Source: Desulfobulbus propionicus DSM 2032 | Lineage (GTDB): Bacteria > Desulfobacterota > Desulfobulbia > Desulfobulbales > Desulfobulbaceae | Reading direction: 5' to 3' | DNA: 32,000 nucleotides | NCBI RefSeq assembly: GCF_000186885.1 | Contig: NC_014972.1 | Coordinates: 2,340,001-2,372,000, forward strand | Part shown: in pieces, positions 1,774-32,000 of the stretch | Position numbering within the stretch: position 1 is the stretch's first letter | Layout of the letters: every line of letters starts with the position of its first letter | Program-made: the position numbers and the translations under genes | The notes under the pieces: model-generated | The model's input: the letters and a program-made list of their open reading frames with translations, nothing else | What the model was told of the DNA's origin: nothing | The model's database searches: none

Positions 1774-1779
1774 CCGGTA

Positions 1780-3300: not shown

Positions 3301-3312
3301 TCTTTCACCTTA

Positions 3313-5214: not shown

Positions 5215-5218
5215 GGAA

Positions 5219-5515
5219 TCACCCTTTCAGCAGGCTAAACACGTTGGTGTCAAGCTTACTTTTATGTTTATGCAACAAAATCACGACGGCAAGGGCCAGG
5301 GCGGCTTCAGCAGCGGCCACAGCCATCACCATCATCGCCAGAACATGACCGTCCATACTCTCATGAACACGGGCAAAAGCGACAAAAGTAAGATTTGCCG
5401 CATTGAGCATCAGTTCTATAGACATGAATACGGTAAAAACATTGCGTCTGGAAATCACACCAACAATACCCAGGCAAAAAAGGATGATACTGAGATACAA
5501 ATAACTGTGAATCAT
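5219..5515 (-). CDS. nuoK: NADH-quinone oxidoreductase subunit K (ND4L-like)
   Basis: 98-aa three-helix membrane ORF. ATGA-type overlap with the nuoJ stop. Position between nuoJ and nuoL. Confidence 0.9.
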
Positions 5516-6021: not shown

Positions 6022-6025
6022 GATA

Positions 6026-6550: not shown

Positions 6551-6563
6551 GCCAGCTCCTCTC

Positions 6564-9399: not shown

Positions 9400-9416
9400 G
9401 GTAACCCTTATCCCCG

Positions 9417-10688: not shown

Positions 10689-10702
10689 ATCGTTCGCTCT
10701 CC

Positions 10703-11209
10703 TTATTTCAGCGTGGCCAAGAGTTCTTTGAGTTTGTCCACATTCATGTTCTCGTAGAACTCACCATTGACCTGAACCACGGGAGCGGTGCCGCAGTGCC
10801 CCAGACATTCCACCTCTTCGAGACTGAACTCTCCGTCAGCGCTGACGTCTCCGGGTTTGATGCCCAATTCCTGTTGTAAATAGTCGACGATTTCCTGTTT
10901 TCCCAGGAGGTAACAGGACAGGGTTCGACAGACACAGATATGATACTTGCCCTTGGGTTGCAGGTTGTACATGGTGTAAAAAGTGGCAGCCTCGTACACC
11001 ATACTGGCAAAGGTCCCTATGCGATCAGCGATATAGGCCATGGCTTCAGCACTAATCCACCCCTCCTGCTCTTGAACAAGCCACAGGGAAGGAAGTATCA
11101 GAGACTCACGGGTGGGATAGCGTTTGGCCAACCGTTCAAACTCGGCATCGCGTTGCGCATCAAAAGCGAACGGTTTTCCCGTTTCTATTAGCTGTGATCG
11201 ATCACTCAT
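10703..11209 (-). CDS. nuoE: NADH-quinone oxidoreductase subunit E (thioredoxin-like 2Fe-2S)
   Basis: 168 aa. CRTLSC ... CLGHCGTAP cysteine pattern. 4-nt overlap with the nuoCD stop. Confidence 0.93.
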   Translation of the reverse strand: MSDRSQLIETGKPFAFDAQRDAEFERLAKRYPTRESLILPSLWLVQEQEGWISAEAMAYIADRIGTFASMVYEAATFYTMYNLQPKGKYHICVCRTLSCYLLGKQEIVDYLQQELGIKPGDVSADGEFSLEEVECLGHCGTAPVVQVNGEFYENMNVDKLKELLATLK

Positions 11210-12921: not shown

Positions 12922-12923
12922 AA

Positions 12924-13436
12924 TCAATCGAGAATCCCCTTGAAATCTTTGTGGCGATCGTTAAGCACACTTTCACCCTTGATTTTGTCCTGGATCTTCA
13001 TCAACGCATCCAGAACAGCCTCGGGCCGCGGAGGACATCCTGAGATGTAAACATCCACAGGAATAATCGTGTCAATACCCTGCACGGTGCAATAGTTGTC
13101 ATAAACACCGCCAGAACTGGCACACGCCCCCATGGCCACGACCCATTTGGGCTCGGGCATTTGTTCATAAATTCGTTTGAGAATCGGCGCCTGCTTATAA
13201 CTAATGGTCCCGCACACGAGCAACAGATCGGCCTGACGGGGAGAAAATCGAACAACCTCAGCGCCCCATCGGGAAATATCGAGTTGACTTGCGGCGGCAC
13301 TCATGAATTCGATCGCGCAGCAGGCGGTTCCGAATACAAACGGCCACAGAGAGTACTCACGCCCCCAATTGATGACTGCATCCAGCTTGGTGGTAAGTAC
13401 CGAATCACCTAGACTTGCTTCTAATCCTAACGCCAA
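12924..13436 (-). CDS. nuoB: NADH-quinone oxidoreductase subunit B
   Basis: 170 aa. Motifs: CCAIEFM, GACASSGG, SGCPPRPE. The start codon is TTG at 13436, preceded by AAAGGGGTG. 10-nt overlap with nuoA. Confidence 0.92.
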   Translation of the reverse strand: MALGLEASLGDSVLTTKLDAVINWGREYSLWPFVFGTACCAIEFMSAAASQLDISRWGAEVVRFSPRQADLLLVCGTISYKQAPILKRIYEQMPEPKWVVAMGACASSGGVYDNYCTVQGIDTIIPVDVYISGCPPRPEAVLDALMKIQDKIKGESVLNDRHKDFKGILD

Positions 13437-13786
13437 TTGAGCACCCCTTTCTTGATGATATAAATAAGACCGGTCAAAAGCAGCGCCATGAACACCACCA
13501 TTTCAGTGAATCCAAACCAGCCCAGCTCGCGCACACTAACCGCCCACGGATACATGAACACTGCCTCTATATCAAACAAAAGAAACAGAATGGCGAGCAG
13601 ATAAAATTTGACACTGAATTTCTGCTCTGCCAAACCAATCATGCGTTTGACGCCGCTCTCGTATGGATCATTCTTTGCCCTGCCACCGGCTCGGGGCCCG
13701 AAGACCGTTGTTACCAGCATGAACAGCGGCACAACGAGAGCAATTCCAATGAGGGCGATTGCTGAAAGTACCAGTTCCGTTACCAT
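13427..13786 (-). CDS. nuoA: NADH-quinone oxidoreductase subunit A (ND3-like)
   Basis: 119-aa three-helix membrane ORF and first gene of the cluster. Motif FLLFDIEAVFMYPWA. RBS AGGGAGAG. Confidence 0.9.
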   Translation of the reverse strand: MVTELVLSAIALIGIALVVPLFMLVTTVFGPRAGGRAKNDPYESGVKRMIGLAEQKFSVKFYLLAILFLLFDIEAVFMYPWAVSVRELGWFGFTEMVVFMALLLTGLIYIIKKGVLNWR

Positions 13787-17556: not shown

Positions 17557-18057
17557 ATGTGCGACAATCATTCCCGCCATTCGGTCGACACGCGGCAACG
17601 ACAAGCCATCGATCGAACCATTCACCGCCATGACTTTCGCCCGGATGCCCTGATCGAGACCTTGCACACCGCCCAGGAAACCCTGGGCTATCTGGATCGG
17701 GATACCTTGGCTTACATTGCGGAAAAACTCAAAATTCCTCCAGCCAGGGTCTTTGGTGTGGCCACGTTTTACAATCACTTCAGACTGAAACCCAAAGGAA
17801 ACCATACGTTGGCCGTGTGCACCGGCACCGCATGCCATGTGAAGGGTAACGATCAAATACTCGCCTGGCTGGGTGAGCAGTACCATCTGCGCCCCGGAGA
17901 AACCACTCCCGACAACCATCTCTCCCTTGTGGAAGTCCGATGTGTCGGCGCCTGCGCCCTCGCGCCCGTGATCGTTTCCGACGGCGAACTCATTGGAAAA
18001 AAGAACTTTGACGAGGCAATTCGCCTCATTAAGGAGTGGATTGGCGATGCAACGTGA
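17557..18057 (+). CDS. hoxE: Bidirectional [NiFe] hydrogenase diaphorase subunit HoxE (NuoE-like 2Fe-2S)
   Basis: 166 aa. NuoE-like cysteine pattern (CTGTAC ... CVGACALAP). RBS AGGAGG. First gene of a hoxEFUYH-ordered cluster. Confidence 0.88.
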   Translation: MCDNHSRHSVDTRQRQAIDRTIHRHDFRPDALIETLHTAQETLGYLDRDTLAYIAEKLKIPPARVFGVATFYNHFRLKPKGNHTLAVCTGTACHVKGNDQILAWLGEQYHLRPGETTPDNHLSLVEVRCVGACALAPVIVSDGELIGKKNFDEAIRLIKEWIGDAT

Positions 18058-19663
18058 GGAACTCATCCGCCGCGCGGATGCCCATCGACGCTCTTTGAAT
18101 GGATTTACCCACCACTTTCTAGTGTGCGCCGGTCTTGGCTGTCCGCGCAACGAGGAGATCATCGCCGCGCTGCGAAGCGTCATCGCCGAGCGAGGCCTGC
18201 AGGAACAGATTTCGGTGCGCAAAGTCGGCTGCATGGGACTGTGTGCCCTGGGCCCCATTGTCTTGGTGCAACCCGAGGAAATTTTCTACCAGGCGGTCAC
18301 GCCCGAAGATGCCGAGGATCTGGTCGCATCCCTTGGCAAAGCCCCTCTGCAGCGCCTTTTTCTGCCATCGGACCTGCCATTTTTCAAACGGCAGCATAAA
18401 AATGTGCTGGCACTCTCCGGCCGGATCGACCCGGAAAGCGTCGACGACTATTTGGCGGCTGGCGGTTATCTGGCCGTTGTTCAAGCGCTCACCGAAATGC
18501 GCCCATCCGATGTCATCCGCCGCGTGCAAGAAAGCGGATTGCGTGGCCGAGGCGGGGCAGGCTACCCCACTGGGCTCAAATGGGCGACCGTTGCCAAGGC
18601 CACAGGAGAAAAAAAATACCTGATCTGCAATGCGGACGAAGGCGATCCAGGAGCTTTCATGGATCGCTCCATCCTGGAAAGCACCCCCCATGCCGTTTTG
18701 GAAGGGATGATCATCGCCGCCTACGCGGTCGGCGCGACCAGTGGCTACATTTATGTGCGAGCCGAATATCCATTGGCGGTGAAACGACTCAAACTGGCCA
18801 TCCGCGAAGCCGAGCGCCTGAATTTTCTGGGTCATGCCGTTTGCGGCTCTTCCCTGGATCTTGATATTCAGCTCCGCCTTGGAGCAGGCGCCTTTGTCTG
18901 CGGCGAAGAAACAGCCCTCATCCAATCGGTGGAAGGCAAGCGAGGCATCCCTCGGCCACGCCCCCCTTACCCTGCGGAACAAGGACTCTGGGGCCGCCCC
19001 ACCCTGATCAACAATGTGGAAACCTATGCCAATGTGCCGCCAATCATTGCCCATGGCCCGGAAAAGCTTGCCGCCTTGGGCACCGAACAGAGCAAGGGCA
19101 CCAAAGTCTTTGCCCTTACGGGAAAAATTCGCAACAGCGGCCTGATCGAGGTGCCCATGGGTATGAGCCTGCGGGAGATTGTTTTTGACATCGGTGGAGG
19201 CATTCCCGGTGGTCACGCCTTGAAAGCCGTTCAGACCGGGGGACCGTCGGGAGGATGCATTCCGGCCGAACATCTGGACACCCCGGTGAGCTTCGAGAGC
19301 TTGCGCGCCCTGGGATCAATCATGGGATCGGGCGGCATGATTGTCATCGACGAAACCACGAACATGGTCGATATTGTCAAATATTTCATGGAGTTCAGCA
19401 TGGATGAGTCCTGCGGCCAATGCACTCCCTGCCGGGTGGGAACCGCCCAGATCCACCACCTGCTCACCCTGTTTCAGCAATCCAGGGCCACTTTGCTTGA
19501 CCTTGCAAAGCTGGAAGCGCTGTGCGATTTGGTGAAAAATACCAGCCTTTGCGGTCTCGGCCAATCGGCTCCCAACCCGGTGCTCAGCACCCTGCGGTAT
19601 TTTCGTCAAGAGTATCTGGACCGGATCGTTGCGCATCCGCCCATTCAGGAGGAGGAACAATGA
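18047..19663 (+). CDS. hoxF: Hydrogenase diaphorase subunit HoxF (NAD/FMN-binding, NuoF-like)
   Basis: The ORF-track start at 17993 lies inside hoxE. The ATG at 18047 (MQREELIRR...) overlaps the hoxE stop by 11 nt and follows AAGGAG. 538 aa. Motifs: GLRGRGGAGYPTGLKW and ESCGQCTPCRVG, plus an N-terminal thioredoxin-like Cys domain. Confidence 0.9.
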   Translation: MQREELIRRADAHRRSLNGFTHHFLVCAGLGCPRNEEIIAALRSVIAERGLQEQISVRKVGCMGLCALGPIVLVQPEEIFYQAVTPEDAEDLVASLGKAPLQRLFLPSDLPFFKRQHKNVLALSGRIDPESVDDYLAAGGYLAVVQALTEMRPSDVIRRVQESGLRGRGGAGYPTGLKWATVAKATGEKKYLICNADEGDPGAFMDRSILESTPHAVLEGMIIAAYAVGATSGYIYVRAEYPLAVKRLKLAIREAERLNFLGHAVCGSSLDLDIQLRLGAGAFVCGEETALIQSVEGKRGIPRPRPPYPAEQGLWGRPTLINNVETYANVPPIIAHGPEKLAALGTEQSKGTKVFALTGKIRNSGLIEVPMGMSLREIVFDIGGGIPGGHALKAVQTGGPSGGCIPAEHLDTPVSFESLRALGSIMGSGGMIVIDETTNMVDIVKYFMEFSMDESCGQCTPCRVGTAQIHHLLTLFQQSRATLLDLAKLEALCDLVKNTSLCGLGQSAPNPVLSTLRYFRQEYLDRIVAHPPIQEEEQ

Positions 19664-20376
19664 CAACACAAGTTCTCACCTTGCGGATCGACGGCCGGGA
19701 AGTAAGCGGGCTCGCCGCGGAAACCATCCTCCATGTGGCGCGGGAAAACGACATTTCCATCCCCACCCTTTGTGCATTGGAAGGGTTGTCGACACCCGGA
19801 TCATGCCGGCTCTGCATGGTGCAAATCAACGGCAGCGACAAACTGCACGCCGCCTGCGTCACCCCCATACAAGAAGGCATGGTGGTGACCACCCAATCGG
19901 ACAAAATTCTTCAATACCGTCGCGCCATCATCGAGCTGCTCTTTTCGGAGCGCAACCATGTCTGCGCGGTGTGCGTTGCCAACGGTCACTGCGAGTTGCA
20001 GGATCTGGCCCGGGAATTTGGGGTCGATCACGTGGAAATGGCCTATCGTTTCCCGGCTCTCACGGTGGATGCCTCGCACAGTCGTTTCGTTCTCGATCAC
20101 AACCGCTGCGTCCTCTGCACCCGTTGCGTGCGTGTATGCGCGGAGATTGAAGGCGCCCACACCTGGGACATCAAGCATCGGGGCATCCACAGCCTGATTG
20201 TTGCGGATCTTGATACCTCTTGGGGGGCCTCCGAAACCTGCACCGGTTGCGGCAAGTGCGTTCATGTCTGCCCAACCGGGGCTCTGTGCGAAAAGGGCAC
20301 GTCCGTAGCGGAACTGCATAAAAAAAGGCCGTTTCTCCCCTATCTCCTCGCCAACCGCACGGTGGACCGCCGATGA
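19660..20376 (+). CDS. hoxU: Hydrogenase diaphorase subunit HoxU (NuoG N-terminus-like Fe-S protein)
   Basis: The real start, ATG at 19660 (MTTQVLTLRIDG...), forms an ATGA overlap with the hoxF stop and has RBS AGGAGGAGG. 238 aa. Motifs: CRLCMV, HVCAVCVANGHCELQ, CVLCTRCVRVC, CTGCGKCVHVCP. Confidence 0.9.
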   Translation: MTTQVLTLRIDGREVSGLAAETILHVARENDISIPTLCALEGLSTPGSCRLCMVQINGSDKLHAACVTPIQEGMVVTTQSDKILQYRRAIIELLFSERNHVCAVCVANGHCELQDLAREFGVDHVEMAYRFPALTVDASHSRFVLDHNRCVLCTRCVRVCAEIEGAHTWDIKHRGIHSLIVADLDTSWGASETCTGCGKCVHVCPTGALCEKGTSVAELHKKRPFLPYLLANRTVDRR

Positions 20377-20906
20377 ACACACCACGGATCGCAACCCTTT
20401 GGCTCGATGGCTGCTCCGGCTGTCACATGTCCTTGCTGGATACCGATGAACGACTGCTCGATCTGGCCGCCATGCTGGATGTTGTCTACAGTCCGTTGAT
20501 GGATGTCAAAACCTTTCCCGAAGCCGTCGATGCGGTATGCATCGAAGGAGCGGTGAGTTCCAAGGAGGACGAGCGCAAACTTGTCGTCGCCCGTCAACGC
20601 AGCAGGTTTCTGATCGCCATGGGTGACTGTGCCGTCACCGGCAATGTTCCAGCCATGCGCAATGTTGTCGGGGCGGAAAGGATTCTTCGGTCGGTGTACA
20701 TCGACCAAGACCCCCTCAACCCGCTCATTCCCGCCGACAACCTGCCGGTGCTCAATAGCAAGGCCCTGCCGCTGCATTGTTTTGTCCAGGTGGATCTGTT
20801 CATTCCAGGATGCCCTCCCGCCGCCGACACTCTTTTTGCCGCACTCAGCGCCGTGGCTGCGGGAAAGGTGAACGACCTTCGACTCGCAACCCGTTTTGGC
20901 GCGTAG
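20373..20906 (+). CDS. hoxY: [NiFe] hydrogenase small subunit HoxY (group 3 type)
   Basis: 177 aa. Motifs: WLDGCSGCHMS, GDCAVTG, IPGCPP. ATGA overlap with hoxU. Confidence 0.9.
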   Translation: MNTPRIATLWLDGCSGCHMSLLDTDERLLDLAAMLDVVYSPLMDVKTFPEAVDAVCIEGAVSSKEDERKLVVARQRSRFLIAMGDCAVTGNVPAMRNVVGAERILRSVYIDQDPLNPLIPADNLPVLNSKALPLHCFVQVDLFIPGCPPAADTLFAALSAVAAGKVNDLRLATRFGA

Positions 20907-20915
20907 GAGTCTTGC

Positions 20916-22343
20916 ATGAAACAGCTTATTACCATCGAGCCAATCACTCGCATTGAAGGACACGCCCGAATCCAACTCTTTCTCGATGACGCCGGCCAGG
21001 TACAAAATGCTCGTTTCCAAGTGACCCAGTTCCGGGGTTTTGAAAAATTCGTCGAGGGTCGGCCGTTTTTCGAGATGCCGTCGCTCACAGCCAGAACCTG
21101 CGGCATCTGCCCCATCAGCCACGAACTGGCTTCGGCCAAGGCTTGCGACCAGCTACTGGCGGTCGCCATTCCGGAAACCGCCAAGCAACTGCGACGGGTG
21201 CTCAATCTGGGGCAGATTATCCAATCCCATGCCCTCAGCTATTTTTACCTTTCCGCCCCTGACTTTCTCCTGGGCATGGACCACCCCCCGGCATCCCGCA
21301 ATTTCTTCGGTCTCGCCGCCGCCCATCCGCAGTTTGCCCGTGACGGGATCAGGTTGCGCCAATTCGGCCAGCAGGTGATCGAACGCCTGGCCGGACGGCG
21401 CATTCATCCGGCCTGGGTGGTGCCCGGCGGGGTCCGTTCGCCGCTGGATGAACGAGCGCGAGACGAGCTGCTTCGAGAAATTCCCACGGTCAAGACCCTT
21501 GCCCTTGATCATCTGCATCGCTTTAAGCAATCGCTTGAACAACACGAAGAATATATCCAAATTTTCGCCCATTTTCCCAGCCTCTTTCTGGGGCTAACCG
21601 ACAGAGACGGCAACCTGGAACATTATGACGGAGGGATGCGAATCATCGACCCCACCGGAGCCCTGGTCGTCGATCATCTCGCTCCTTCACGCTATAGAGA
21701 AGTGATCGACGAGGCTGTTGAACCGTGGACTTTTCTCAAATTCCCCTACTATAAGCCTCAAGGATATCCCGAGGGGATGTATCGGGTCGGACCGCTTGCC
21801 CGTCTCAATCTTGCCGCCCGATGCGGCACCGAACTGGCGGATCAGGAATTACTCCAGTTCCGGAGTCTTGTGGATGGCCTGCACCTTGGTTCCTTTTATG
21901 CCCATTACGCTCGGCTGATCGAGGTGGTTTATGCGATCGAGATGATCGAGAAACTGCTGAGTGATCGGGCCATTCTCGACAGCACCGTGCGAGCTGTGGC
22001 CGGAGTGAATAAGTGTGAAGGAATAGGCGTGACCGAGGCCCCACGTGGGACGTTGATCCACCACTATAGGGTCAATGACGATGGTCTGCTCGAATGGGCC
22101 AACCTGATCATTGCCACGGGTCACAACAATCTTGCCATGAATCGCGGCATTCTCCAGGCGGCTCGGCGTTATCTTGACGGCGTCACCCCACGCGAGGGGT
22201 TGCTCAACCGCATAGAAGCGGTAATTCGCGCCTTTGATCCCTGCCTGGCCTGTTCCACCCATGCGGTTGGGGCCATGCCCCTGATTGTCGAGGTGATCGG
22301 TCCCGATGGCTCGATCCTGGGTCAACTCCAGCGGGATAATTGA
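20916..22343 (+). CDS. hoxH: [NiFe] hydrogenase large subunit HoxH
   Basis: 475 aa. Motifs: RIEGH and the N-terminal Ni-binding RTCGICPISH. The C-terminal DPCLACSTH is followed by a 25-aa tail, the expected endopeptidase-cleaved extension. RBS AGGAG. Confidence 0.93.
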   Translation: MKQLITIEPITRIEGHARIQLFLDDAGQVQNARFQVTQFRGFEKFVEGRPFFEMPSLTARTCGICPISHELASAKACDQLLAVAIPETAKQLRRVLNLGQIIQSHALSYFYLSAPDFLLGMDHPPASRNFFGLAAAHPQFARDGIRLRQFGQQVIERLAGRRIHPAWVVPGGVRSPLDERARDELLREIPTVKTLALDHLHRFKQSLEQHEEYIQIFAHFPSLFLGLTDRDGNLEHYDGGMRIIDPTGALVVDHLAPSRYREVIDEAVEPWTFLKFPYYKPQGYPEGMYRVGPLARLNLAARCGTELADQELLQFRSLVDGLHLGSFYAHYARLIEVVYAIEMIEKLLSDRAILDSTVRAVAGVNKCEGIGVTEAPRGTLIHHYRVNDDGLLEWANLIIATGHNNLAMNRGILQAARRYLDGVTPREGLLNRIEAVIRAFDPCLACSTHAVGAMPLIVEVIGPDGSILGQLQRDN

Positions 22344-22489: not shown

Positions 22490-22966
22490 CTATTCAATTC
22501 GAATTCGCCCCACACGATTTATCACCACCTTCAACGGTGATATTTGGGATGAGTTTTCAAATGTTACAGTACCAATGAAAGAAGGTATGCCATCGGGCCT
22601 AAATCGGGTCCGATTGTTGGTAAAAGTTGTACTGTCGATCACCACCCCCGGTGGCGTGGTCACGTTGCGCAACAGCCGATCATCGGCATCCTCGGTCCAA
22701 TTCAAGTTTTTATCGATAAAGACCCGGTAGGAGGAACCCGCTCCGGTGTTGCAGACCACCGCCACATGCTCCGCTTCCCGGATGGCTGTTATCTTGGCCA
22801 ACTGCAGGTCGCCGACAAGATTGTTGACGGCTCCCCGCAGTTGTCGTTCCGCCCGCCAACCAATCATGTTGGGAATGGCAATCGCGCTCACAATCGCCAT
22901 GATCCCAATCGTAACCACAACCTCGATCAACGTAAAGCCATGCTGATTCGCTGTTTTGTTCACCAT
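22490..22966 (-). CDS. Type IV prepilin-like minor pilin / pseudopilin, GspH-FimT family
   Basis: The ORF-track start at 23116 is upstream of the signal. The ATG at 22966 gives MVNKTANQHG/FTLIEVVVTIGIMAIVSAIAIPN, with the class III signal G/F cleavage site and Glu at +5. The following RAERQLRGAVNNLVGDLQLAKITAIRE matches the GspH/FimT/FimU pattern. 158 aa. Confidence 0.8.
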   Translation of the reverse strand: MVNKTANQHGFTLIEVVVTIGIMAIVSAIAIPNMIGWRAERQLRGAVNNLVGDLQLAKITAIREAEHVAVVCNTGAGSSYRVFIDKNLNWTEDADDRLLRNVTTPPGVVIDSTTFTNNRTRFRPDGIPSFIGTVTFENSSQISPLKVVINRVGRIRIE

Positions 22967-23007
22967 ACCGGCATCCGCTGAAAACGGCAACCTGGGGACG
23001 CTACGGG

Positions 23008-23439
23008 TCAATTCTTCCACACCCCGCCCTCCTGCCGAAAAGGAACAACGTTCTTTTGTTGGGTTGCGGGGACCGGTTCCTGGCCGACCGATGGCCCCTG
23101 CTCCGTCACTTCCCACATCTTGGTCAGCACCGAACCAAGGGCATAGAATTTCACCGCCATGCCGGTTTTAAAATAGGCAACGCTGGTCGGGCCGCCCGAA
23201 CGGGTGCGAAAAACCGCCTCCTTGTCGATGGTATACACACTGTCGTTGATAACAATGATCTGTGACGAGCCGGGCTGCTTCTCCCGGATCCCTTCGACCA
23301 CGCCGGTGAACTCTTCGGCGCCCAGGGCGATGACGTCACCATGCGTGTCATAACGCCGCTCCGCCAAGGCGTTCCCATCGCCGAGCAGGACAATCCCCAG
23401 CACACACACCAACAGGCAGACGGCTTTGCTCCATTGCAT
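23008..23439 (-). CDS. Secreted hypothetical protein at the PilY2 position of the minor-pilin operon
   Basis: Signal-like MQWSKAVCLLVCVLGIVLLGDGNALA. GGAGA (23450-23446) abuts the first ATG at 23445 but lies 6 nt from the ATG at 23439, so I use 23439. 143 aa with no motif I recognise. Starts 21-27 nt after the giant ORF's stop. Confidence 0.6.
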   Translation of the reverse strand: MQWSKAVCLLVCVLGIVLLGDGNALAERRYDTHGDVIALGAEEFTGVVEGIREKQPGSSQIIVINDSVYTIDKEAVFRTRSGGPTSVAYFKTGMAVKFYALGSVLTKMWEVTEQGPSVGQEPVPATQQKNVVPFRQEGGVWKN

Positions 23440-23466
23440 AGTCATTCTCCGCTCACGAAATAGATG

Positions 23467-26400
23467 TTATTTCCATTCAAGTTCGCGCCAGTAAATGATG
23501 GGCGTTCCCTCGACATTGGCTATCGGAGTCAGCAGTTCATCCTTTTCAGGCGTATACAATCGCTGATATTCACCAGTTGTATCGACAACGGTGACCGCCG
23601 GAGTGATGCCTTCGACCTTGAATGCCGATGGTGCGACATAGATCGGCTTCGCCGGCGTACCAATGTTAATGTAATCGTCGGCGTCGATCTCATCATCCTT
23701 GTTGAGATCAAAGAAAGCGCTTCCCAACAGCCCGCCGGTACAAGCATCAACCGCCCAGTTATAGGACGAGCCGCCGCTCTCGCAGGGGGAATCCGACGGG
23801 ATGGTGCTGGTGAAAATCAGCTTGCCGTTGATGATGGTCATGTCTCGGACAATCCGCTCTCCATTGGCCGGCAGATCGAAATACCAGCCTACGTGCCGTG
23901 CTGTTTTTTTGCTGCTCGCGGCAAACTCGGCCTGTTCGGAGGGCAGATACCAATCGATGTAGTTATCGGAAACCACGCGAATTATTTCATCATACAAGTC
24001 GGAATCGGTGGCACCGTAGACGGTTTCCTGCTTGGTGCCGTCACTGTTGTAGTTGACCCCTCCGGCCCAAATCTGCGTCTGACGAAGCAGGGTCACATAG
24101 GGGGCGCTGGCCGTGCCGACCACGGTGGCCGCATTGGAAAGGCTGCGCACCGCGCCGCAATTGGTGGTGCAGGACGCATACTCGCTCATGCAGTCAGCCT
24201 CGCAATCGCTGTCTCCGCTGCAGTCATACAGGCATGTTCCGGAGGTGGTGGCGGTGCCGAGGGTCGCGGTGCAGGCTGAAGTGCAGGCAGTGGCCACGGT
24301 GGTGTTTTTCGCCTGAAAGGTCCCCAGATAGGTCTGTTCGGGCGTGGTATTGCCCGCAGCCTTCCATGAGTTCGACCAATCCCAGAGGCCATACATGGTC
24401 TGCACGCTCTGATCGAGGAAGTCGGTGCCCGGGTCAAGGATCCGGCCCGTGCCAAAAATGATCATGTAGCCTTTTTCGTCCGTGGGGCAGGCCGAGGTGA
24501 TCACCGGCTGCACGGTGATCGGCTGCCGATAACCTGCCTCGCTCCTGGCCTGGAACATGGGCTGCTTGACGGCGGCGCTGTTTTCAAAATAAATCTCCCA
24601 ATCGTCCTTCGTTACCGCGTTGATGTCAAACTTCCATAGATTGCCCAGCAGATCGCCCGCGTAGACGAAATCGTTGATCGTGTCTCCCTGGGGAAAGATC
24701 AAGGCCGGGGTGGAGAGGCCGTTGCACTCCGTGCCGCTGGTATTGTTGCCGACACCGGTATCGATGATCTTCGTCCACTGAATCTGGCCAAAATCGCTTA
24801 GGCCAACGGTGAACAATACCGCGTGTCCATTGGCACTCTCGTAGCCGTTGCCGAACACCAGCACCCAATCTGTGCCGCTATCGTTGGTGGAAGCAATCTG
24901 GGGCCGGGAGAAGCTGTACCCCAGATTGTCTTTCACCTCGGCGGCGGCAACATACCCGGCGGTGGAGGTAGTCGTATACTCCCATAGCACGATTTCCGAG
25001 GCATAGTTTTCAATGTCCGTTTTATGCTGGGCGGCGGAGGTCAGATCAAGGGCAAAGAACCCCTTGCCGCCTTTGCCGAGTCCTCCCACAAGGACCACCT
25101 TGCCACCTAGATCCTTGACCGTGACGTAACCATCGACAAAAGCGGTGTGGGTATAGGCTTCCTGCGAAAGCAGATGAAGATTGCCAAAGATCGCCTGCGG
25201 AATATAGGCAAAAACTTCGTCGCCGGTTGTACCGTCAAAAATATGGAGCATGCCGTCGTTGCCGCCGACAATCACCCAATCTATACCCAGGGTGGTGTTG
25301 GAATAGTGGTACGGCTCGGAGTTGATAAAATCTCCGAGCTTGCTGGAACGATTGCGGAAATTCCTCACACCACCGGTGTCGTTCCGCCGTTCATAGGTGC
25401 TGTCGCCGCGCAGATAATTGAAAATGTATTCATCCTGCTGCAACTGCGCCTGCATGGTAGCATTCAACGAGTTCCAGCGGAAAGGCAGCCCGTTGCCGCC
25501 AATATCGGCGGTGATGATCTGTCGGTCGGCCGCAGCCACGCCGGCGATTTGTTTGGCCGCCGACCATTTGACCTCCGGAGGATTCAGCAGACAGCTGCTT
25601 CGGGCGCTGCCGCACGCGGTCTGGCAACTGCTGGTGGTGCAGTTGACAAGACAGGCATCGTAGGACTCCGAGCAGGATTCTCCACTGCACGAACTGGTGC
25701 AGGTGGTCTTGGTCGCCGTACAGGACGCCTCGCAAATGGCATCGCCGTTACAGGCAGCAACGCAACTGGTGTAATCCGCGCTACAACTCGCCTGGCAGCT
25801 GACTTTGCTGCAAGCCGCCACTTTACCGGAGCTATCCAGGCATTTCGCCAGCACATCGCCGTTCCAGTCGCTGGAGTCATAGGTGGTCTGGAACAAGAGG
25901 GTATCTTCCTCGATTTTATTGGCATTGATGGACACCGACGACGCGGTGCCGGTCTGCTCCTCGATCAGATCCCTGATGGTCTGCATGGCCGCAACCAACT
26001 CCGCCGGATCGGCGGCATTGAGGAAGGCCCCACGGCTGTTGACCGCGGCATGATACAGGTCATCGATCCGCTTGGGCGATTCATTGGAGTAGTTGGGGTC
26101 TTCTGTCCACCAGGCCGGGCATTTGCCGTCATACGGCCCGCCCGTGCTTGAGTAGCCCGAGTAGGCCAGGGAGGTCAGATCGCTGATGAGGGGGCAGTCC
26201 GCCCCTCCTGGCTCATCGCATTTGGGCAGACAATCAGGGAACAGATCCGGTTCGTATTCACCGGCTACGCCGAACGCCACGGTGTAGGTTACCAGATGCT
26301 GCTTGGCGTTTTCGTCATAGCCTTTGCTGGGCACGTTATCCCCTAAACCGCCGTCCAGATCGGTGGCATAAAAATACATGGCCACATCGGCCAGGGTATA

Positions 26401-29400
26401 TTTGGCACTGTCCTTAAGTACGGCATAGGTGTTGTAAGCGCTGTTGCCATCGATATTAACGATGCTGTAAAAATCCTCGTTATAATAGCCATCGGTCATG
26501 GCAACCACATAGGCTCGCTGGCATTCACCGCCGGAATCGTCGCAAGTATCGAGATCGTCGTTCTTGTCGGCATCCCAAAAGACCGAGGTGTCTGCCGAGG
26601 TGCAGGTACTGCCCTGGTTGGTGCCTAGACCGGAGGTGGTCAGCAAGCCGGAATAATCGCCGGATGTTCCCTTTTCGAAATACTTGCCCACCTCGTATAA
26701 GCCGCGGCGCAAGGGAGTGCTTCCCGAGGCCCTGATGTTATAGATGGTTGACAGAAAAGCAACTTTCTCCGCGCTGTCGGCGGTGGTCATCTCCACCAGC
26801 GGTTCGGACACGCTCCGATTGATGGTGTGCAAACCTAATTCAACGCCCTTCATGCCCTCGACCGTCAGGCCTATGGCCGCTTTGGTGGTCAGCATGCGTT
26901 TGCGGTAAAAGGAGAACCAGTCGGCAAAATCCTGGCGCACCATGTAGGCCAGCTGGCTGGCGTTGGTGATCTGATTGCCGGCCGCGTCATACCGTTTGGG
27001 TATGACCGAGGTTGGAACCTCGGCACCCGTTTTTTCAGTCAACTCGCCGTTATCGACCACATTATCCGAGTCGGCGTCGGTGAACAGATAGTAGTGCAGG
27101 GAATAGTCCCCCACGCCGTAACCGGAGCCGGGAATGGTCACGAGATAAACATCTTCTCCCGCTTCCTGTTCGCCATCGCCGTCGGTGTCGTTCCATGTGT
27201 AATAGTGAGCGTTGGGCACGACAATGGTGGCGCTGGAGGTCTGCGCCTTGAAGGCAATCTTCGAACTGTTGAGTCGCAGCCAACGCGCCCCGTAGCGTGG
27301 AGTTTTCCCCCATCCGTTATCATAGCTCTGATCAATAGTATAAGTCGAGGAGACCAGCTGATTGCTCGTGTTGTAATACGAAATGGTATACGTGGCCTTG
27401 CCGTCCCTGGCCGAATCTTCGTTGACCCAGACATACACATAATAATTGCCGGCCTGGGCGGCGGTGAGATTCAATCCCCAATAGGCGGAACGGCCGGCAA
27501 CCTCGGTGAACCGTCCATTGCCATTCCAGGCGTATTGCGGGTCATTGGTGGTATCATACCAATTGCCCAGTTCGGAGTAGACTGTGCTGTCAGAATTGTC
27601 GAAAATGATCTCCGGCTTGTAGGGGATGCTCGTGGTCGAAAAACTGCTGACCGGATAGCCCTTGCTGACGCTTGACTGAATATCGTACCGGGTAGACAGA
27701 CCAACGGCATCGGCATAGGTGGAAGTGCCGGTGCTGCTGGTTGTCCTGGTCACCGTTACCTGTTGCCCGGCACTGACCGTGAAATATTCGGCATTGAGCT
27801 CAATCTGGTAGTTGCTCCGATTCGATGCCGAATCGCCGGGGTGATACATGGAACCGTAGGTGGTGCTGGCATCATGGGAGTTCATACGCGGAAAATCCAT
27901 GTCCGCGTGGGTGTAGCCGGTGGCGTAGGCCGTTTCCGGAAAAGTGGCCCCGGTGGCGGTCGGATTGTATTCGCGTTCGTGGGCCCGAACATTGGCACTG
28001 CCAACCACCTCTTCCCACTTCGGCCACGGGGTGTAGGTCACGCTGGGGTTGAAATAAATCCGGTTATAGCCAAACCATTGACTCTTCCACAGCCGCCGTT
28101 CAGCCAGGCTCAGGGCGGGATAATCGCTATCACTGTAGGTTTTTTGGATCACGTTGCAAGGAAAGACATAGCCATCGCCGTTGAACCGCTGATTATCCTC
28201 GCTGGTCATAAATTCCCAGTCCATACTGCCCGAGTCGTCGAGCAGGAACATGATCAACGGCGGCGCGGGCTTGACCGCAGCATTGGCCGGTACATCCGAG
28301 GCGGTCACGCACGTCACCTCCGAACCCTTGTCCTTGGGGCCGTCATAGCAGTCTTCGTCGGCAGCCGTCGCCGGATCGTCGTATAAACCAGGGGCGACAC
28401 TGGTCGAGGTATCGTCGCAATCGCCCTGATTCTCGGTGTAGCCGTCGCCGTCGTCATCTTTATCGTTGCCGCTGCAGGCCAGATCGGAACCGTTGCAATC
28501 CTGATCGATGCCGTCACCGCAGACCTCGGCGGCCCCGGGATAGATCGACATATTGGTGTCGTCGCAATCGGCCTCGGTACTGGCGGAACAGGTTCCTCCC
28601 TGGGAACTGACGGTATAACTGTCACCATCGGCATCCTGGCAGGGCTCGACAAAGACAGCCTCGACATTGCGATCCTTGTCCATGATCACGGTAATCGAGG
28701 GATCGGTGGCGGTGGCCGAACCGATATCGCCCTTCCACAACGAGAAATACCACCCGGCCTTGCCGGCGGCACTGAGGGTGACGGTTGTGTTTTGCGGATA
28801 GATGTATTGGTTTTGCCCTACCCAGGTGTCTCCTTCAGGCGAACGACTGATTGTGCCGTTGGTGGCGGTAAGGCTCAGGACGTGGGAGTCGGCATCGTAC
28901 AAGCCGGTGACCTGCTGATCGATGAAGTTGTTTTGCAGATCGATGAGAATGTCGGCGGGTTTCTGCCAACCATCAATGGCCAGAAATTCGACCAGAATGT
29001 AACGGACATCGCAGGACCCGGTATCGCCCGGAGCCGAAAAGGAACCTCCATGCACACCGGCCTTGAAGGGCGTGGCGTCGATTTTATTGGACGAGGCGTC
29101 CGCCTTGTAGGCCCTCCAGCCGTTGCTGTGACTTTGCACATAAAGATCCTCGTCTGTGCCGGTGGCGCCGTCATCGGCACCCAACAAGACCGTTACCGTG
29201 GCGTTGCCGAATCGTGCGAGAATGCTGTGGGTTGAGTCGGTGACGTTGCTGAAGGTATGGGTGTTGCCGGTGTAATTGTCGGTATCCGAGGCATAGCCTC
29301 CCAGAGCATTGCCGTCCACCTCAAGTTCCGTGACGCACGATCCACCATCAGCGGTCAGGGTGAAACTTTCGTTGCCGCCGTGGTCGGCGATGACTCCTTC

Positions 29401-31611
29401 CGGCCCGCTGTCGTGAACGGTTTGGCCGGTGCCGCTGGTATGGGCCACCGTGCCGCCGCCTTCGGACTTCATGCTGATCTGATGATCGAACACCACGTTC
29501 AAGGTGTGGGTGTTGATCTGCTGGGGGGTGGTGTCGGTGAACGTGTAGGTGCGCTCCTTGGGGTCGGCGGCATTGGCGATGGTGACATAGGAGAGCGAGG
29601 CAGGATCAACCCCGTTAATGGTCACCGATTGAATCCGGTGGTCGGCCTTGACGGTGAACACTGCCGCCTGCTTGTCGGCAATCGGTACCGGGCTGCCGCT
29701 AGTGATGGCCACCGGGGTGCCCGCCGGGCTTTCCAGGGTCACAATGCCGTCGGTATTCCAACTGGGGATGATACGATGATCATTGTCGGTGATCGTCCCG
29801 GTTGCAAAGACAAAATTGCATACCGTCACCGGCAAAGTGCCGCCGCTTATGGGTCCGGCATAAAAATATTCGGCAGACTCGTCCTCGGTGTCCGGATTGA
29901 CGGGGACATTGGCGGGACCAAGGGTTGTATCGCCTGTTGCCAGGGTAAACTGGTCGGTTGTATAGGCAAAATCATTGCCCGAAACGGCAGAACCGCCGTA
30001 TGTGCGCCATTTGAAAGTTAAACCATTATGTTGCGCCTGCACCGCAGGAGTGACGGTGACCGTGAACGGCATGTTTGCCGGAGTCCCCGAGGGCTCCTCC
30101 AGGGTCGCATTGATGAATTTAATCGTGTATTTTTCATCGACATTAATGGTGACCGTGGCGCTGGTGTAACCGGCGGTGGTCACGTTGGCGGAATTGGCGC
30201 CGATGCCGACGCTGAACTGCTCCGCCGTCTCCACCAGGTTGTCATTGATGATCGGCACGCTGATCGTGCCGCTGGTCACCGAGCCGTCACCGTTGATCGT
30301 CAGGGTGGAGGCGGGCGCGGTGTAATCCGCCCCCTCGGCCGCCGTTCCCGGGGTATGCGATACATTGAACACCACCGTGTCGCCCGTCCGCACCGGCTGA
30401 TTCAATTTCACCGTCAACGTCACGTTGCCAACGCTCTCGGCGACAGTGGCGTTTGCAAATCCGACCACCGCGTAGGTGTCGCCATCGTCATTGATGGTCA
30501 CCGTGGCGCTCTCATGGCCCGTGGTAATCACATTGGTCGAAGACGCACTGATGCCAACCGTGAACTGTTCCGTTTCCTCCACCAGGATGTCATTGGTGAT
30601 CGGCACGCTGATCGTGCCGCTGTCCGCGCCGGCAGCAATCGTCAGGGTGGAAGCGGGCGCGGTGTAATCCGATCCCGCGGTCGCCGTGCCCGATGCGTGC
30701 GAAACATTGAGCACCACGCTGTCTCCCGTGACCACCGCCTGGTTCAGCTGCACCGTCAAGGTCGCTGTGCCCGCGCCCTCGTCGACCGTTATCCCCGAAA
30801 AGCCGCTCACCGCATAGGTATCGCCGGCATCGTTGATGGTCACCGTGGCACTGCTGTTGCCCCCTGTCGTCACATTGGCCGAATTGGCGCCGATGCCGAC
30901 ACTGAATTGCTCCGCCGTCTCCACCAGGCTGTCATTGATGATCGGCACACTGATCGTGCCGCTGGTCACCGAGTCGTCGCCGGTGATCGTCAAGGTGGAG
31001 GCGGGCGCGGTGTAATCCGAACCTGCCGCCGCCGTGCCCGCTGTGTGCGAAACATCCAGTACCACCGTGTCGCCGGTACGCACCGGTTGATTGAGTTGAA
31101 CGATCAGGTTCGCGTTGCCGCCATCCTCGCTGACGGTGACCCCGGAAAATCCGCTCACCGCATAGGTATCGCCATCGTCGGCAATCGTGATGGTGGCGCT
31201 TTGATTGAGACCCGCCGCGTTGCTTGCCGGGTCCCCCGCGAGCGAGACGACAATATTCTCCGTTGATTCGACCAGATGGTCATCGGCAAGGGCCACAGTG
31301 ATCGTGCCGTTGTCCTCTCCAGGATTGATGGTCAGGGATGCCGCCGGAGGCGTGTAATCGCTGCCGGCAGTAGCCGTTCCTGCCGTCGTCACGGCAAACT
31401 GTACCGTGTCACCAACCGCGACAGGCTTATCCAACTGCACCGTCAACGTCACGGTTCCCGTGTGCTCCGTGACCGCAGCCCCGGAAAATGCGGCGATACT
31501 GTAGGTATCCGCCACAGCCCGGCCATGGACGGCCATCATGATCAACGCCGCCAACACACCGGCCCACCACCGCATCTTCATCTTTCCCATCCTGTTCACC
31601 AATGATTTCAT
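23467..31611 (-). CDS. pilY1: Giant PilY1-family type IV pilus-associated adhesin (signal peptide, Calx-beta array, InlB-B-repeat-like modules, MopE-type motifs, split vWA, Cys-rich inserts, PilY1 C-terminal propeller)
   Basis: Uninterrupted ORF. The track start at 31650 is a TTG; the ATG at 31611 (MKSLVNRMGKMKMRWWAGVLAALIMMAVHGRAVA/DTYS) has RBS GGAGGGAG, giving about 2,714 aa. Motifs: Calx-beta GTA(T/A)AGSDYT...ND.LVE..E.F, MIDAS DDSGSMD, AMTDGYYNED, GGNDGMLHIFDGTTGDEVFAYIP, VYAGDLLGNLWKFDI, DLNKDDEIDADD. The operon context includes prepilin genes. Confidence 0.8.
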   Translation of the reverse strand: MKSLVNRMGKMKMRWWAGVLAALIMMAVHGRAVADTYSIAAFSGAAVTEHTGTVTLTVQLDKPVAVGDTVQFAVTTAGTATAGSDYTPPAASLTINPGEDNGTITVALADDHLVESTENIVVSLAGDPASNAAGLNQSATITIADDGDTYAVSGFSGVTVSEDGGNANLIVQLNQPVRTGDTVVLDVSHTAGTAAAGSDYTAPASTLTITGDDSVTSGTISVPIINDSLVETAEQFSVGIGANSANVTTGGNSSATVTINDAGDTYAVSGFSGITVDEGAGTATLTVQLNQAVVTGDSVVLNVSHASGTATAGSDYTAPASTLTIAAGADSGTISVPITNDILVEETEQFTVGISASSTNVITTGHESATVTINDDGDTYAVVGFANATVAESVGNVTLTVKLNQPVRTGDTVVFNVSHTPGTAAEGADYTAPASTLTINGDGSVTSGTISVPIINDNLVETAEQFSVGIGANSANVTTAGYTSATVTINVDEKYTIKFINATLEEPSGTPANMPFTVTVTPAVQAQHNGLTFKWRTYGGSAVSGNDFAYTTDQFTLATGDTTLGPANVPVNPDTEDESAEYFYAGPISGGTLPVTVCNFVFATGTITDNDHRIIPSWNTDGIVTLESPAGTPVAITSGSPVPIADKQAAVFTVKADHRIQSVTINGVDPASLSYVTIANAADPKERTYTFTDTTPQQINTHTLNVVFDHQISMKSEGGGTVAHTSGTGQTVHDSGPEGVIADHGGNESFTLTADGGSCVTELEVDGNALGGYASDTDNYTGNTHTFSNVTDSTHSILARFGNATVTVLLGADDGATGTDEDLYVQSHSNGWRAYKADASSNKIDATPFKAGVHGGSFSAPGDTGSCDVRYILVEFLAIDGWQKPADILIDLQNNFIDQQVTGLYDADSHVLSLTATNGTISRSPEGDTWVGQNQYIYPQNTTVTLSAAGKAGWYFSLWKGDIGSATATDPSITVIMDKDRNVEAVFVEPCQDADGDSYTVSSQGGTCSASTEADCDDTNMSIYPGAAEVCGDGIDQDCNGSDLACSGNDKDDDGDGYTENQGDCDDTSTSVAPGLYDDPATAADEDCYDGPKDKGSEVTCVTASDVPANAAVKPAPPLIMFLLDDSGSMDWEFMTSEDNQRFNGDGYVFPCNVIQKTYSDSDYPALSLAERRLWKSQWFGYNRIYFNPSVTYTPWPKWEEVVGSANVRAHEREYNPTATGATFPETAYATGYTHADMDFPRMNSHDASTTYGSMYHPGDSASNRSNYQIELNAEYFTVSAGQQVTVTRTTSSTGTSTYADAVGLSTRYDIQSSVSKGYPVSSFSTTSIPYKPEIIFDNSDSTVYSELGNWYDTTNDPQYAWNGNGRFTEVAGRSAYWGLNLTAAQAGNYYVYVWVNEDSARDGKATYTISYYNTSNQLVSSTYTIDQSYDNGWGKTPRYGARWLRLNSSKIAFKAQTSSATIVVPNAHYYTWNDTDGDGEQEAGEDVYLVTIPGSGYGVGDYSLHYYLFTDADSDNVVDNGELTEKTGAEVPTSVIPKRYDAAGNQITNASQLAYMVRQDFADWFSFYRKRMLTTKAAIGLTVEGMKGVELGLHTINRSVSEPLVEMTTADSAEKVAFLSTIYNIRASGSTPLRRGLYEVGKYFEKGTSGDYSGLLTTSGLGTNQGSTCTSADTSVFWDADKNDDLDTCDDSGGECQRAYVVAMTDGYYNEDFYSIVNIDGNSAYNTYAVLKDSAKYTLADVAMYFYATDLDGGLGDNVPSKGYDENAKQHLVTYTVAFGVAGEYEPDLFPDCLPKCDEPGGADCPLISDLTSLAYSGYSSTGGPYDGKCPAWWTEDPNYSNESPKRIDDLYHAAVNSRGAFLNAADPAELVAAMQTIRDLIEEQTGTASSVSINANKIEEDTLLFQTTYDSSDWNGDVLAKCLDSSGKVAACSKVSCQASCSADYTSCVAACNGDAICEASCTATKTTCTSSCSGESCSESYDACLVNCTTSSCQTACGSARSSCLLNPPEVKWSAAKQIAGVAAADRQIITADIGGNGLPFRWNSLNATMQAQLQQDEYIFNYLRGDSTYERRNDTGGVRNFRNRSSKLGDFINSEPYHYSNTTLGIDWVIVGGNDGMLHIFDGTTGDEVFAYIPQAIFGNLHLLSQEAYTHTAFVDGYVTVKDLGGKVVLVGGLGKGGKGFFALDLTSAAQHKTDIENYASEIVLWEYTTTSTAGYVAAAEVKDNLGYSFSRPQIASTNDSGTDWVLVFGNGYESANGHAVLFTVGLSDFGQIQWTKIIDTGVGNNTSGTECNGLSTPALIFPQGDTINDFVYAGDLLGNLWKFDINAVTKDDWEIYFENSAAVKQPMFQARSEAGYRQPITVQPVITSACPTDEKGYMIIFGTGRILDPGTDFLDQSVQTMYGLWDWSNSWKAAGNTTPEQTYLGTFQAKNTTVATACTSACTATLGTATTSGTCLYDCSGDSDCEADCMSEYASCTTNCGAVRSLSNAATVVGTASAPYVTLLRQTQIWAGGVNYNSDGTKQETVYGATDSDLYDEIIRVVSDNYIDWYLPSEQAEFAASSKKTARHVGWYFDLPANGERIVRDMTIINGKLIFTSTIPSDSPCESGGSSYNWAVDACTGGLLGSAFFDLNKDDEIDADDYINIGTPAKPIYVAPSAFKVEGITPAVTVVDTTGEYQRLYTPEKDELLTPIANVEGTPIIYWRELEWK
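30133..31509 (-). repeat. Four tandem coding repeats of about 113-116 codons (Calx-beta modules); a fifth degenerate copy extends to about 29779
   Basis: Repeat starts: DTYSIAAFSG, DTYAVSGFSG, DTYAVSGFSG, DTYAVVGFAN. Repeats 2 and 4 are near-identical at the DNA level: 30181-30330 versus 30871-31020 gives 139/150 identical by hand count, at an offset of 690 bp. Confidence 0.9.
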
Positions 31612-31646
31612 CGGAAACGCTCCCTCCAGCGGAATCCACAATGCCG

Positions 31647-32000
31647 TCAAGGCAGATAGACTGTTTTTTTATAGCCGACCATCAGCAGCCGCCGGCCCGC
31701 ATACGCCTTACCCGTGCCGGACTTGACATCGTACATGCCGTAGACGGTGTAACATTTTTCCACCTTCTCGGAATTCGACACATCGGAACCGGCGCAGATA
31801 TCGTAACTGTTGTTATCCGAATTGAGATTGCCCTGAACGGCGGCATACCAGATACGGTCCTTGTCCTTGGTGCCGTCCGAATCATACCCATTGGGGACAA
31901 TATCCCGATCTCCAACGGTAAAGGAGGTGGCCTGTGGGGTGATCAGCGGATCGGGCCAGTTGGCGCTTATCTCCAGATCGATCACGCTGCCGCCGTCCGG
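31647..32000 (-). CDS. 3' part of a CDS running in from beyond the window end; hypothetical, at the PilX/PilW position upstream of pilY1
   Basis: The frame stays open to base 32000; the track's start at 31985 is an internal GTG. The TGA stop is at 31647-31649, 36 nt upstream of the preferred pilY1 ATG (it would overlap only the alternative TTG start at 31650). I recognise no motif in the visible 117 aa. Confidence 0.5.
   Translation of the reverse strand, partial: PDGGSVIDLEISANWPDPLITPQATSFTVGDRDIVPNGYDSDGTKDKDRIWYAAVQGNLNSDNNSYDICAGSDVSNSEKVEKCYTVYGMYDVKSGTGKAYAGRRLLMVGYKKTVYLP

Follow-up and report, generated by a model that had tools for sequence, protein, structure and literature searches.

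PilY1 proteins determine both the targets of type IV pilus adhesion and the way in which cells sense surfaces, and the experimental work on them that we found in the literature concerns proteins of roughly 1,000 to 1,500 residues from pathogens and Myxococcus. Pseudomonas aeruginosa PilY1 (1,163 amino acids, aa; PDB 3HX6) is cysteine rich and has an N-terminal vWA-type domain and a C-terminal beta-propeller; its gene follows the pilV, pilW, and pilX homologues and precedes small genes that include one for a minor pilin. In this study, we examined a stretch of 32,000 nucleotides (nt) from Desulfobulbus propionicus DSM 2032 (contig NC_014972.1, positions 2,340,001 to 2,372,000), the whole of which is called the window below and whose minus strand carries a gene for a giant PilY1-family protein of 2,714 aa. 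The giant protein shares all of these traits with P. aeruginosa PilY1 but has 2.3 times the length, a beta-module array of about 1,070 residues ahead of the vWA domain, a vWA domain split by an insertion of about 420 aa that holds a CBM-like module, two cysteine-rich CX3C inserts, a calcium site that lacks the first Asp of P. aeruginosa residues 851 to 859, a DxNxDxxxD loop elsewhere in the propeller, and an upstream regulator of the sigma-54 type.

Other described systems resemble the locus in part. Neisseria and Kingella PilC (NCBIfam NF040838) is homologous to the giant protein over propeller residues 2064 to 2415, whereas the N-terminal halves are unrelated. According to a 2026 study, PilC/PilY1 contributes its extreme C-terminal strand to complete the beta-sheet of PilK, which licenses pilus assembly and holds the adhesin at the tip, and PilK/PilX homologues invariably lack the glutamate at position +5 (Glu+5) (PMC13533445); such docking is plausible here too. 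Myxococcus xanthus PilY1.3 and the myxobacterial classes 1.5 to 1.7 also combine vWA and propeller and have pilX, pilW, pilV, and fimU homologues. The accessible part of the study describing them gives a high, variable cysteine count with predicted disulfides as a class character of Myxococcota PilY1, with medians of 30 to 41 cysteines and many predicted disulfides in the long classes 1.5 to 1.7, and in that part Calx-beta, Flg_new_2, and MopE arrays and CX3C hairpin inserts are not reported, whereas the giant protein has these and 48 cysteines (PMC13190605). LapA-type adhesins, according to a review, likewise unite a stalk of calcium-binding beta modules with a vWA domain, but they are exported by type I secretion and anchored in the outer membrane, whereas the giant protein has a Sec signal and a propeller predicted to dock on a pilus.

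A PilY1-family propeller encoded in a minor-pilin operon

The C-terminal domain of the giant protein matches Pfam PF05567 with 142.5 bits (cutoff, 28.1; E = 2.3e-41) and aligns to PDB 3HX6 with an E value of 3.6e-53, or of 1.6e-65 when a profile of its close clade was used (Table 1). An earlier sequence-only reading of this DNA had placed the C-terminal third in the PilY1 family and had named the lack of such a hit as the result that would count against it; both matches uphold the placement. Gene order agrees. A near-identical contig and the complete Desulfobulbus oligotrophicus genome both have the genes in the order sensor kinase, sigma-54 response regulator, pilV-like (137 aa), pilW/ppdB-like (221 aa), pilX-like (220 aa), giant gene, a gene for a secreted protein of 145 aa (orf145), and a GspH/FimU-type pilin gene, with both regulators sitting directly upstream of the pilus operon. 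The giant gene thus lies in a pilV-pilW-pilX-pilY1-orf145-fimU/gspH-type minor-pilin operon. Translations and family scans agree with the same earlier reading that prepilin-type and small unknown genes flank it on the same strand, and propeller homology and synteny with its view of a PilY1/PilC-family protein in a minor-pilin operon.

Table 1 Positions of the giant gene, its domains and motifs, and the adjoining genes in the window
Feature	Positions	Strand	Residues	Details
Giant pilY1 gene	23467..31611	(-)		2,714 aa plus stop
Sec-type signal peptide	31510..31611	(-)	1-34	Cleavage after AVA; direct reading of translation
Four Calx-beta domains	30136..31509	(-)	35-492	Pfam PF03160
Fifth, degenerate Calx-beta	29779..30135	(-)	493-611	
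Pair of homologous beta-sandwich modules	29203..29778	(-)	612-709, 710-803	
Beta module with one helix	28894..29202	(-)	804-906	Conserved GW motifs
Flg_new_2/divergent InlB B-repeat domain	28642..28887	(-)	909-990	PF18998
Two MopE-type Cys/Asp motifs	28309..28641	(-)	991-1101	PF11617
vWA domain (supported)	25936..28269	(-)	1115-1892	Split by ~420-aa insertion right after MIDAS DxSxS
Golvesin_C/CBM6-35-36-like beta-sandwich	27247..27609	(-)	1335-1455	In vWA insertion; PF25275
Cys-rich insert 1	25591..25812	(-)	1934-2007	15 Cys, six CX3C pairs; just before propeller
PilY1 beta-propeller domain	23506..25422	(-)	2064-2702	PF05567
Equivalent of P. aeruginosa PilY1 calcium site	24670..24696	(-)	2306-2314	F-P-Q-G-D-T-I-N-D; 3HX6 alignment
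Cys-rich insert 2	24157..24285	(-)	2443-2485	Four CX3C pairs; inside propeller
Conserved D-x-N-x-D-x-x-x-D loop	23683..23709	(-)	2635-2643	DLNKDDEID; direct reading; conserved across clade
Extreme C-terminus	23470..23505	(-)	2703-2714	TPIIYWRELEWK
PilX/PilK-like minor pilin gene, 3' end	31647..32000	(-)		Full 220 aa, runs off window
Secreted protein	23008..23445	(-)		145 aa; translation; between pilY1 and GspH-type pilin
GspH/FimU-type minor pilin	22490..22969	(-)		159 aa from ATG; G|FTLIE

The pilX-like gene is complete on the near-identical contig (L002:4816-5478), where its product matches PilX_N weakly. Its N-terminus reads G|FVMVM and lacks Glu+5, which the other three pilins of the operon have; this fits the rule described above for PilK/PilX pilins, which are apical, and supports placing the giant protein in a tip complex. 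At the other end of the putative interaction, a C-terminal G..YWRE motif and a near-invariant Trp are found in 42 homologues, and by analogy with PilC the extreme C-terminus is a candidate beta-strand for docking onto the PilX-like pilin. Judged from the sequences, the prerequisites of the PilK-docking mechanism are all present at the operon. The GspH/FimU-type pilin was identified by PF12019 (GspH; E = 1.6e-15), N_methyl, and NCBIfam GspH/PpdA-like matches. The 145-aa secreted protein had no Pfam or NCBIfam family match, and D. oligotrophicus has a protein of the same size at the same position; its slot resembles the one held by PilY2 in Pseudomonas.

A call between the regulator and the pilV-like gene (orf89) is probably no gene, being AT-rich DNA with no family match and an implausible start. 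A search for a sigma-54 promoter upstream of the pilV-like gene gave chance-level matches, none of them in the intergenic region, and a terminator and promoter scan downstream of the giant gene gave nothing above chance.

The N-terminal module array

The roughly 1,070 residues that link the signal peptide to the vWA domain make up nine beta modules and two small Cys/Asp knots. This agrees with the estimate of some 1,100 extra residues in the sequence-only reading; the modules are of extracellular type and stand ahead of a vWA-plus-propeller core. Calx-beta (PF03160) was matched in five stretches when the whole protein was scanned with Pfam (202.6 bits; E = 1.8e-60), and a family hidden Markov model (HMM) placed repeats 1 to 4 at residues 35 to 146, 148 to 262, 264 to 376, and 378 to 492 and a weak fifth repeat at residues 493 to 610. 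Their acidic motif, D..LVE..E.F, is invariant across the clade, and a profile search matched the domains to the calcium-binding domains of NCX1 in the PDB. The fifth repeat scores 18.9 bits when scanned alone, but hhalign pairs it with repeat 4 at 98% and AlphaFold2 models it confidently, so the earlier count of four good repeats and one degenerate one stands.

Of the three modules previously likened to InlB B-repeats, one is confirmed by Pfam: residues 909 to 990 carry a PF18998 match (residues 916 to 988) of 30.8 to 38.8 bits against a cutoff of 23.6. The other two, residues 612 to 709 and 710 to 803, are a separate pair that hhalign identifies as mutually homologous (96%; E = 2.8e-9), with no Pfam match and less than 6% hhalign probability against the Flg_new_2 module; AlphaFold2 gave all-beta models with a predicted local distance difference test (pLDDT) score of about 90. 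The module at residues 804 to 906, likewise without a Pfam match, was modeled at a pLDDT above 90, and its HMM finds copies almost only inside the close clade. MopE-type motifs (PF11617) were matched in two stretches above the gathering score (50.4 bits; E = 2.6e-13), as the sequence-only reading had proposed; their Cys and Asp residues are invariant, a weak profile match links the region to MopE (PDB 2VOV), and model confidence there is low.

A model of residues 493 to 1100 is a string of all-beta domains with a mean pLDDT of 84.9, in which the MopE part alone is poorly defined. Searched with this five-domain model, Foldseek gave only generic Ig-like and Calx strings, among them pilus adhesins of Gram-positive bacteria and proteins with Ig-like domains in tandem, and these did not type modules 612 to 906. 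Pfam was also run on segments taken alone, among them residues 610 to 905, 1100 to 1335, and 1920 to 2062, and found nothing in these three.

A vWA domain with a nested CBM-like module

We assign residues 1115 to 1892 to a vWA domain with an intact metal ion-dependent adhesion site (MIDAS), an assignment supported by four observations on sequence and model. The MIDAS residues (D1125-x-S1127-x-S1129, T1632, and D1707-G) do not vary among 9 close homologues or in a broader set of 42. The AlphaFold2 model of residues 1096 to 2062 (pLDDT, 78; predicted template modeling score, 0.74) has an alpha/beta core in which strands and helices alternate as expected. The top Foldseek matches are all vWA proteins, led by 4JDU (BatA-like; probability, 0.94; E = 0.03) and followed by the vWA-carrying Streptococcus sanguinis pilin PilB, TFIIH p44, SpaC, and the VWA domain of CLCA1. 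Finally, homologue P0362 passes Pfam VWA_2 (32.4 bits; cutoff, 27) with a stretch that aligns to residues 1560 to 1879 (E = 2e-48), so that the match is transitive. These lines agree with the MIDAS motifs listed in the sequence-only reading.

The region inside the vWA insertion that aligns with Golvesin_C (PF25275) models as beta strands, and its aligned homologues pass the family clearly, for example P0312 at 101 bits. Golvesin_C has been equated with CBM6-CBM35-CBM36_like_2, two Bacteroides carriers of which were shown to be lectins (PMC9166713). The earlier labels "metal-type" and "carbohydrate-type" for the binding modules are not supported: they derive from Pfam family names, and here the CBM-like match is below threshold.

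Cysteine-rich inserts and calcium sites

Of the 48 cysteines, 15 fall in residues 1934 to 2007 and 8 in residues 2443 to 2485, mostly as CX3C pairs 5 to 6 residues apart. AlphaFold2 models the first insert, with moderate confidence (pLDDT, 60 to 90), as four helices forming two hairpins. The second is missing from P. aeruginosa PilY1, where the alignment breaks, and from most homologues, which match in two stretches. The insert cysteines are conserved across the clade. A comparison of 263 PilY1-family proteins (the window protein and 262 database relatives) showed CX3C clusters in 32 of them, with 4 to 11 pairs each; almost all of the 32 are members of this clade or stand nearest to it.

CX3C pairs on facing helices have the geometry of a disulfide-stapled hairpin; they resemble those of the small Tim proteins with twin CX3C motifs, with no claim of membership in that family. 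Going by this geometry and the model, the 48 cysteines, above all those of the CX3C hairpins, are most likely disulfide staples that keep the protein whole under retraction force. It is very unlikely that the CX3C inserts and MopE knots are instead redox-active or metal-binding elements of the pilus tip; were they so, the tip of Desulfobulbales pili might sense or contact redox-active surfaces or partner cells or, alternatively, might unfold stepwise under load through reducible disulfides.

In D. oligotrophicus, the genes upstream of the pilus regulators (L003:908-4726) encode a VKOR-DsbA fusion, a large tetratricopeptide repeat protein, and another prepilin-type protein. The adjacency of a disulfide-forming enzyme and a 47-Cys pilus protein in that genome may be more than coincidence.

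Within the propeller, residues 2306 to 2314 align to the 3HX6 segment D-N-N-S-D-G-V-A-D, which we take to be the published P. aeruginosa calcium site, D851 to D859. Since FPQGDTIND stands against DNNSDGVAD in this alignment, the first ligand Asp appears to be lost; the clade consensus is PQGDGxND. The acidic loop noted in the sequence-only reading, DLNKDDEID, is real and conserved, but it does not coincide with the P. aeruginosa site in the 3HX6 alignment; it is a candidate calcium site in a separate part of the propeller. As read from the alignments, the clade-specific CX3C inserts and this relocated candidate loop are the only points that set the protein apart.

Distribution of the architecture

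A propeller search of 1.84 billion cluster representatives returned 7,850 homologues. The best 150 of these have a median length of 1,416 aa, with 29 of at least 2,000 aa, 15 of at least 2,500 aa, and a maximum of 3,879 aa. The vWA-propeller core (residues ~1100 to 2714) is widespread in Desulfobacterota, and the full-length architecture occurs in about 20 Desulfobulbales species genomes (Desulfobulbus, Desulfofustis, and Desulfocapsaceae); within the clade, differences in length are almost wholly gains and losses of Calx-beta repeats. Against the 262 relatives, module HMMs found Calx-beta in 42, the 713-803-type module in 77, Flg_new_2 in 50, MopE in 82, and the CBM-like module in 99.

Module HMMs and precomputed Pfam lists show that many giants beyond the clade combine these modules in the same order. 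Giant PilY1 proteins of Desulfobacterota and environmental origin (P0283, P0289, P0132, and P0137; P0005 of D. oligotrophicus; and L006 of Desulfofustis glycolicus) share the succession Calx-beta, Ig-like, Flg_new_2, MopE, vWA with CBM-like insert, and propeller, and D. oligotrophicus shares the operon as well. Giants outside the close clade differ in their distal arrays, which are cadherin-like, PKD, PPC, or many Flg_new_2 domains, and in lacking the CX3C inserts and the 804-906 module. Homologues are already named "PilC/PilY family type IV pilus protein" or "Tfp pilus tip-associated adhesin PilY1." The architecture is therefore not rare but belongs to a widespread class of giant PilY1 proteins already labeled in databases, and the earlier statement that it could not be matched to any described one fails, since it recurs full length in about 20 species genomes and block by block in dozens of PilY1 clusters. 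The giant gene is a clean example of this unstudied class of 2,000 to 3,900 residues, to which about one-fifth of the closest relatives in databases belong and which is conserved throughout Desulfobulbales; the finding can guide annotation and the choice of a model protein and reveals no new mechanism.

A full-length homologue with 50% identity (L005) lies on a 10-kb contig (DYNZ01000088.1) of a "Leptospira biflexa" metagenome-assembled genome from a sulfidic cave; the contig is probably mis-binned, since all other full-length relatives are Desulfobulbales. The only mention related to Desulfobulbaceae that we found in the literature concerns PilY1 expression in syntrophic sulfate reducers. A link to cable bacteria, considered for the Desulfobulbaceae relatives, was dropped: no cable-bacterium genome was among the 80 loci compared, and no paper connecting the two was found.

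Proposed function and alternatives

With a probability of roughly 70%, we read the giant protein as a PilY1/PilC tip protein of a type IVa pilus that acts as a tip adhesin with a long calcium-stiffened stalk; in any particular ligand we would place far less confidence. A pilus-borne adhesin is also what the sequence-only reading proposed, and it remains the most reasonable reading. Following published PilC/PilY1 work, the propeller and C-terminal strand would dock, after Sec export and disulfide formation, on the PilX-like pilin; the remaining minor pilins would join beneath, and the complex would prime assembly of the type IVa pilus and stay at its tip. The nine beta modules and two Cys/Asp knots would project from there as a stalk of a few tens of nanometers (our estimate, at roughly 4 nm per module), which calcium on the Calx-beta domains would stiffen and which would extend the reach of the adhesin. 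A spacer role is suggested by the variation in length within the clade, which follows Calx-beta repeat number. The vWA MIDAS and the nested lectin-like CBM module would be the likeliest ligand sites, and acidic groups or glycans on surfaces, exopolysaccharide, and partner cells are candidate ligands; lectin-like binding is proposed because the CBM-like family includes tested lectins and is widespread in this branch of PilY1. Around the propeller, the disulfide-stapled hairpins would provide resistance to retraction force. Should the stalk model hold, Desulfobulbales would carry a long modular adhesin on a retractable filament, of relevance to aggregation, particle attachment, and syntrophic contacts in sediments.

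Several points weigh against this reading. A protein of about 290 kDa would have to pass the secretin. With the propeller at the tip, the Calx-beta domains are left most distal, with no recognizable terminal binding domain, and our division into stalk and binder is for this reason a guess. NF040838, the equivalog model of Neisseria PilC, scores 57.5 bits against a cutoff of 350, so that the protein is no equivalog, and the canonical P. aeruginosa-type calcium site looks degenerate in the alignment. Pfam VWA does not match the giant protein directly, and the Foldseek matches to vWA proteins are weak; PF25275 reaches 27.6 to 28.5 bits here, below its cutoff of 31.6. The window holds no major pilin or pilus motor genes. 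In the literature we found no paper on PilY1 proteins with Calx-beta arrays, nor any on experiments with members of the clade.

The protein might instead act mainly as a periplasmic or envelope factor in pilus biogenesis or signaling, its N-terminal array serving another role or being cleaved off. PilY1 proteins do prime assembly and regulate the machine as well, according to published work (PMC13533445 and abstracts). The sensor kinase and sigma-54 response regulator directly upstream would suit a signaling role, and so large a protein might be unable to pass the secretin. Calx-beta, Ig-like, Flg_new_2, and CBM-like modules, however, are typical of surface-exposed proteins, variation in repeat number fits an exposed spacer under diversifying pressure, and the published C-terminal strand model explains retention at the tip (PMC13533445). 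We consider the periplasmic role unlikely.

Quite unlikely, in our judgment, is an adhesin specific for minerals or metals. On this view, copper, iron, or manganese phases would be ligands of the MopE motifs, CX3C cysteines, and acidic modules, and the pilus tip would serve to anchor the cell on metal oxides or to sense metals. In its favor, two MopE-type motifs pass Pfam, the 48 cysteines lie in conserved patterns, and the modules are strongly acidic and of calcium type. PF11617, however, is defined only as a "putative metal-binding motif" and, among 262 related PilY1 proteins, is found in 82, which come from varied habitats, and the first CX3C segment models as helical hairpins, which would fit disulfide staples. 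No cytochromes or other signs of metal respiration were found in the window, and the relatives are Desulfobulbales and other Desulfobacterota; the earlier impression of a metal-respiring lineage is accordingly not borne out.

Integrity of the giant gene

The minus-strand frame 23467..31650 stays open for 2,727 codons counted from TTG. The ATG at 31611 is preceded 9 nt upstream by the Shine-Dalgarno sequence GGAGGGA and gives 2,714 aa; public gene calls begin 10 codons downstream, at Met11 (P0001, 2,704 aa, 100% identical), which is why an exact-protein lookup of the 2,714-aa form came back empty. Either start keeps the leader, which on direct reading has a K/R-rich n-region, a hydrophobic core, and AVA|D, so the single intact open reading frame (ORF) with a Sec-type leader described earlier is retained. 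The only sizeable DNA repeat in the gene is the Calx-beta array (period, ~345 bp), whose copies have diverged to 74 to 76% identity. Two assemblies made independently from different sequencing runs agree exactly on the protein, and full-length homologues at 45 to 68% identity retain every module in unchanged order, including those in the complete genome of D. oligotrophicus and in the cultured D. glycolicus DSM 9705. On these grounds the giant ORF is real and not an assembly artifact; that it is a chimera, or a decaying gene not made as a single protein, is barely credible, as the internal repeats and one homologue with a heavily deleted propeller (P0003) that could be cited for it are set against repeats only ~75% identical in DNA, two concordant assemblies, and homologues intact in module order.

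P0003 itself (2,499 aa; 68% identity; on a 1.35-Mb contig) has lost most of its propeller past the position of residue 2361, which the alignment shows as several deletions; it may be a frameshifted or decaying copy. Long antisense ORFs of up to 412 aa lie opposite the giant gene, for example 25147-26151 (+) and 30028-31266 (+), and we regard these not as genes but as shadow ORFs of a coding strand that is rich in GC and repeats.

Other genes in the window

The rest of the window holds nuoA-N, ssb, amt, a P-II-type (glnB-type) gene, and a Hox-type NAD-linked [NiFe] hydrogenase, the identities of ssb, amt, and the P-II-type gene being read from translations only. Scans for tRNA and Rfam families in the window were empty. 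The complex I operon (346-13786, minus strand) is complete from nuoA to nuoN and includes a fused NuoC-NuoD protein of 573 aa. The hydrogenase cluster (17557-22343, plus strand) consists of HoxE/F-, HoxU-, HoxY-, and HoxH-like ORFs and is convergent with the pilus operon, as it is on contig L001; this adjacency is not conserved, since different genes follow the pilus operon in D. oligotrophicus. Near 18 kb, GC content steps from ~0.46-0.52 (nuo, ssb, amt) to ~0.55-0.61 (hydrogenase and pilus genes); the two halves of the window may differ in origin, or the step may follow from the composition of individual genes.

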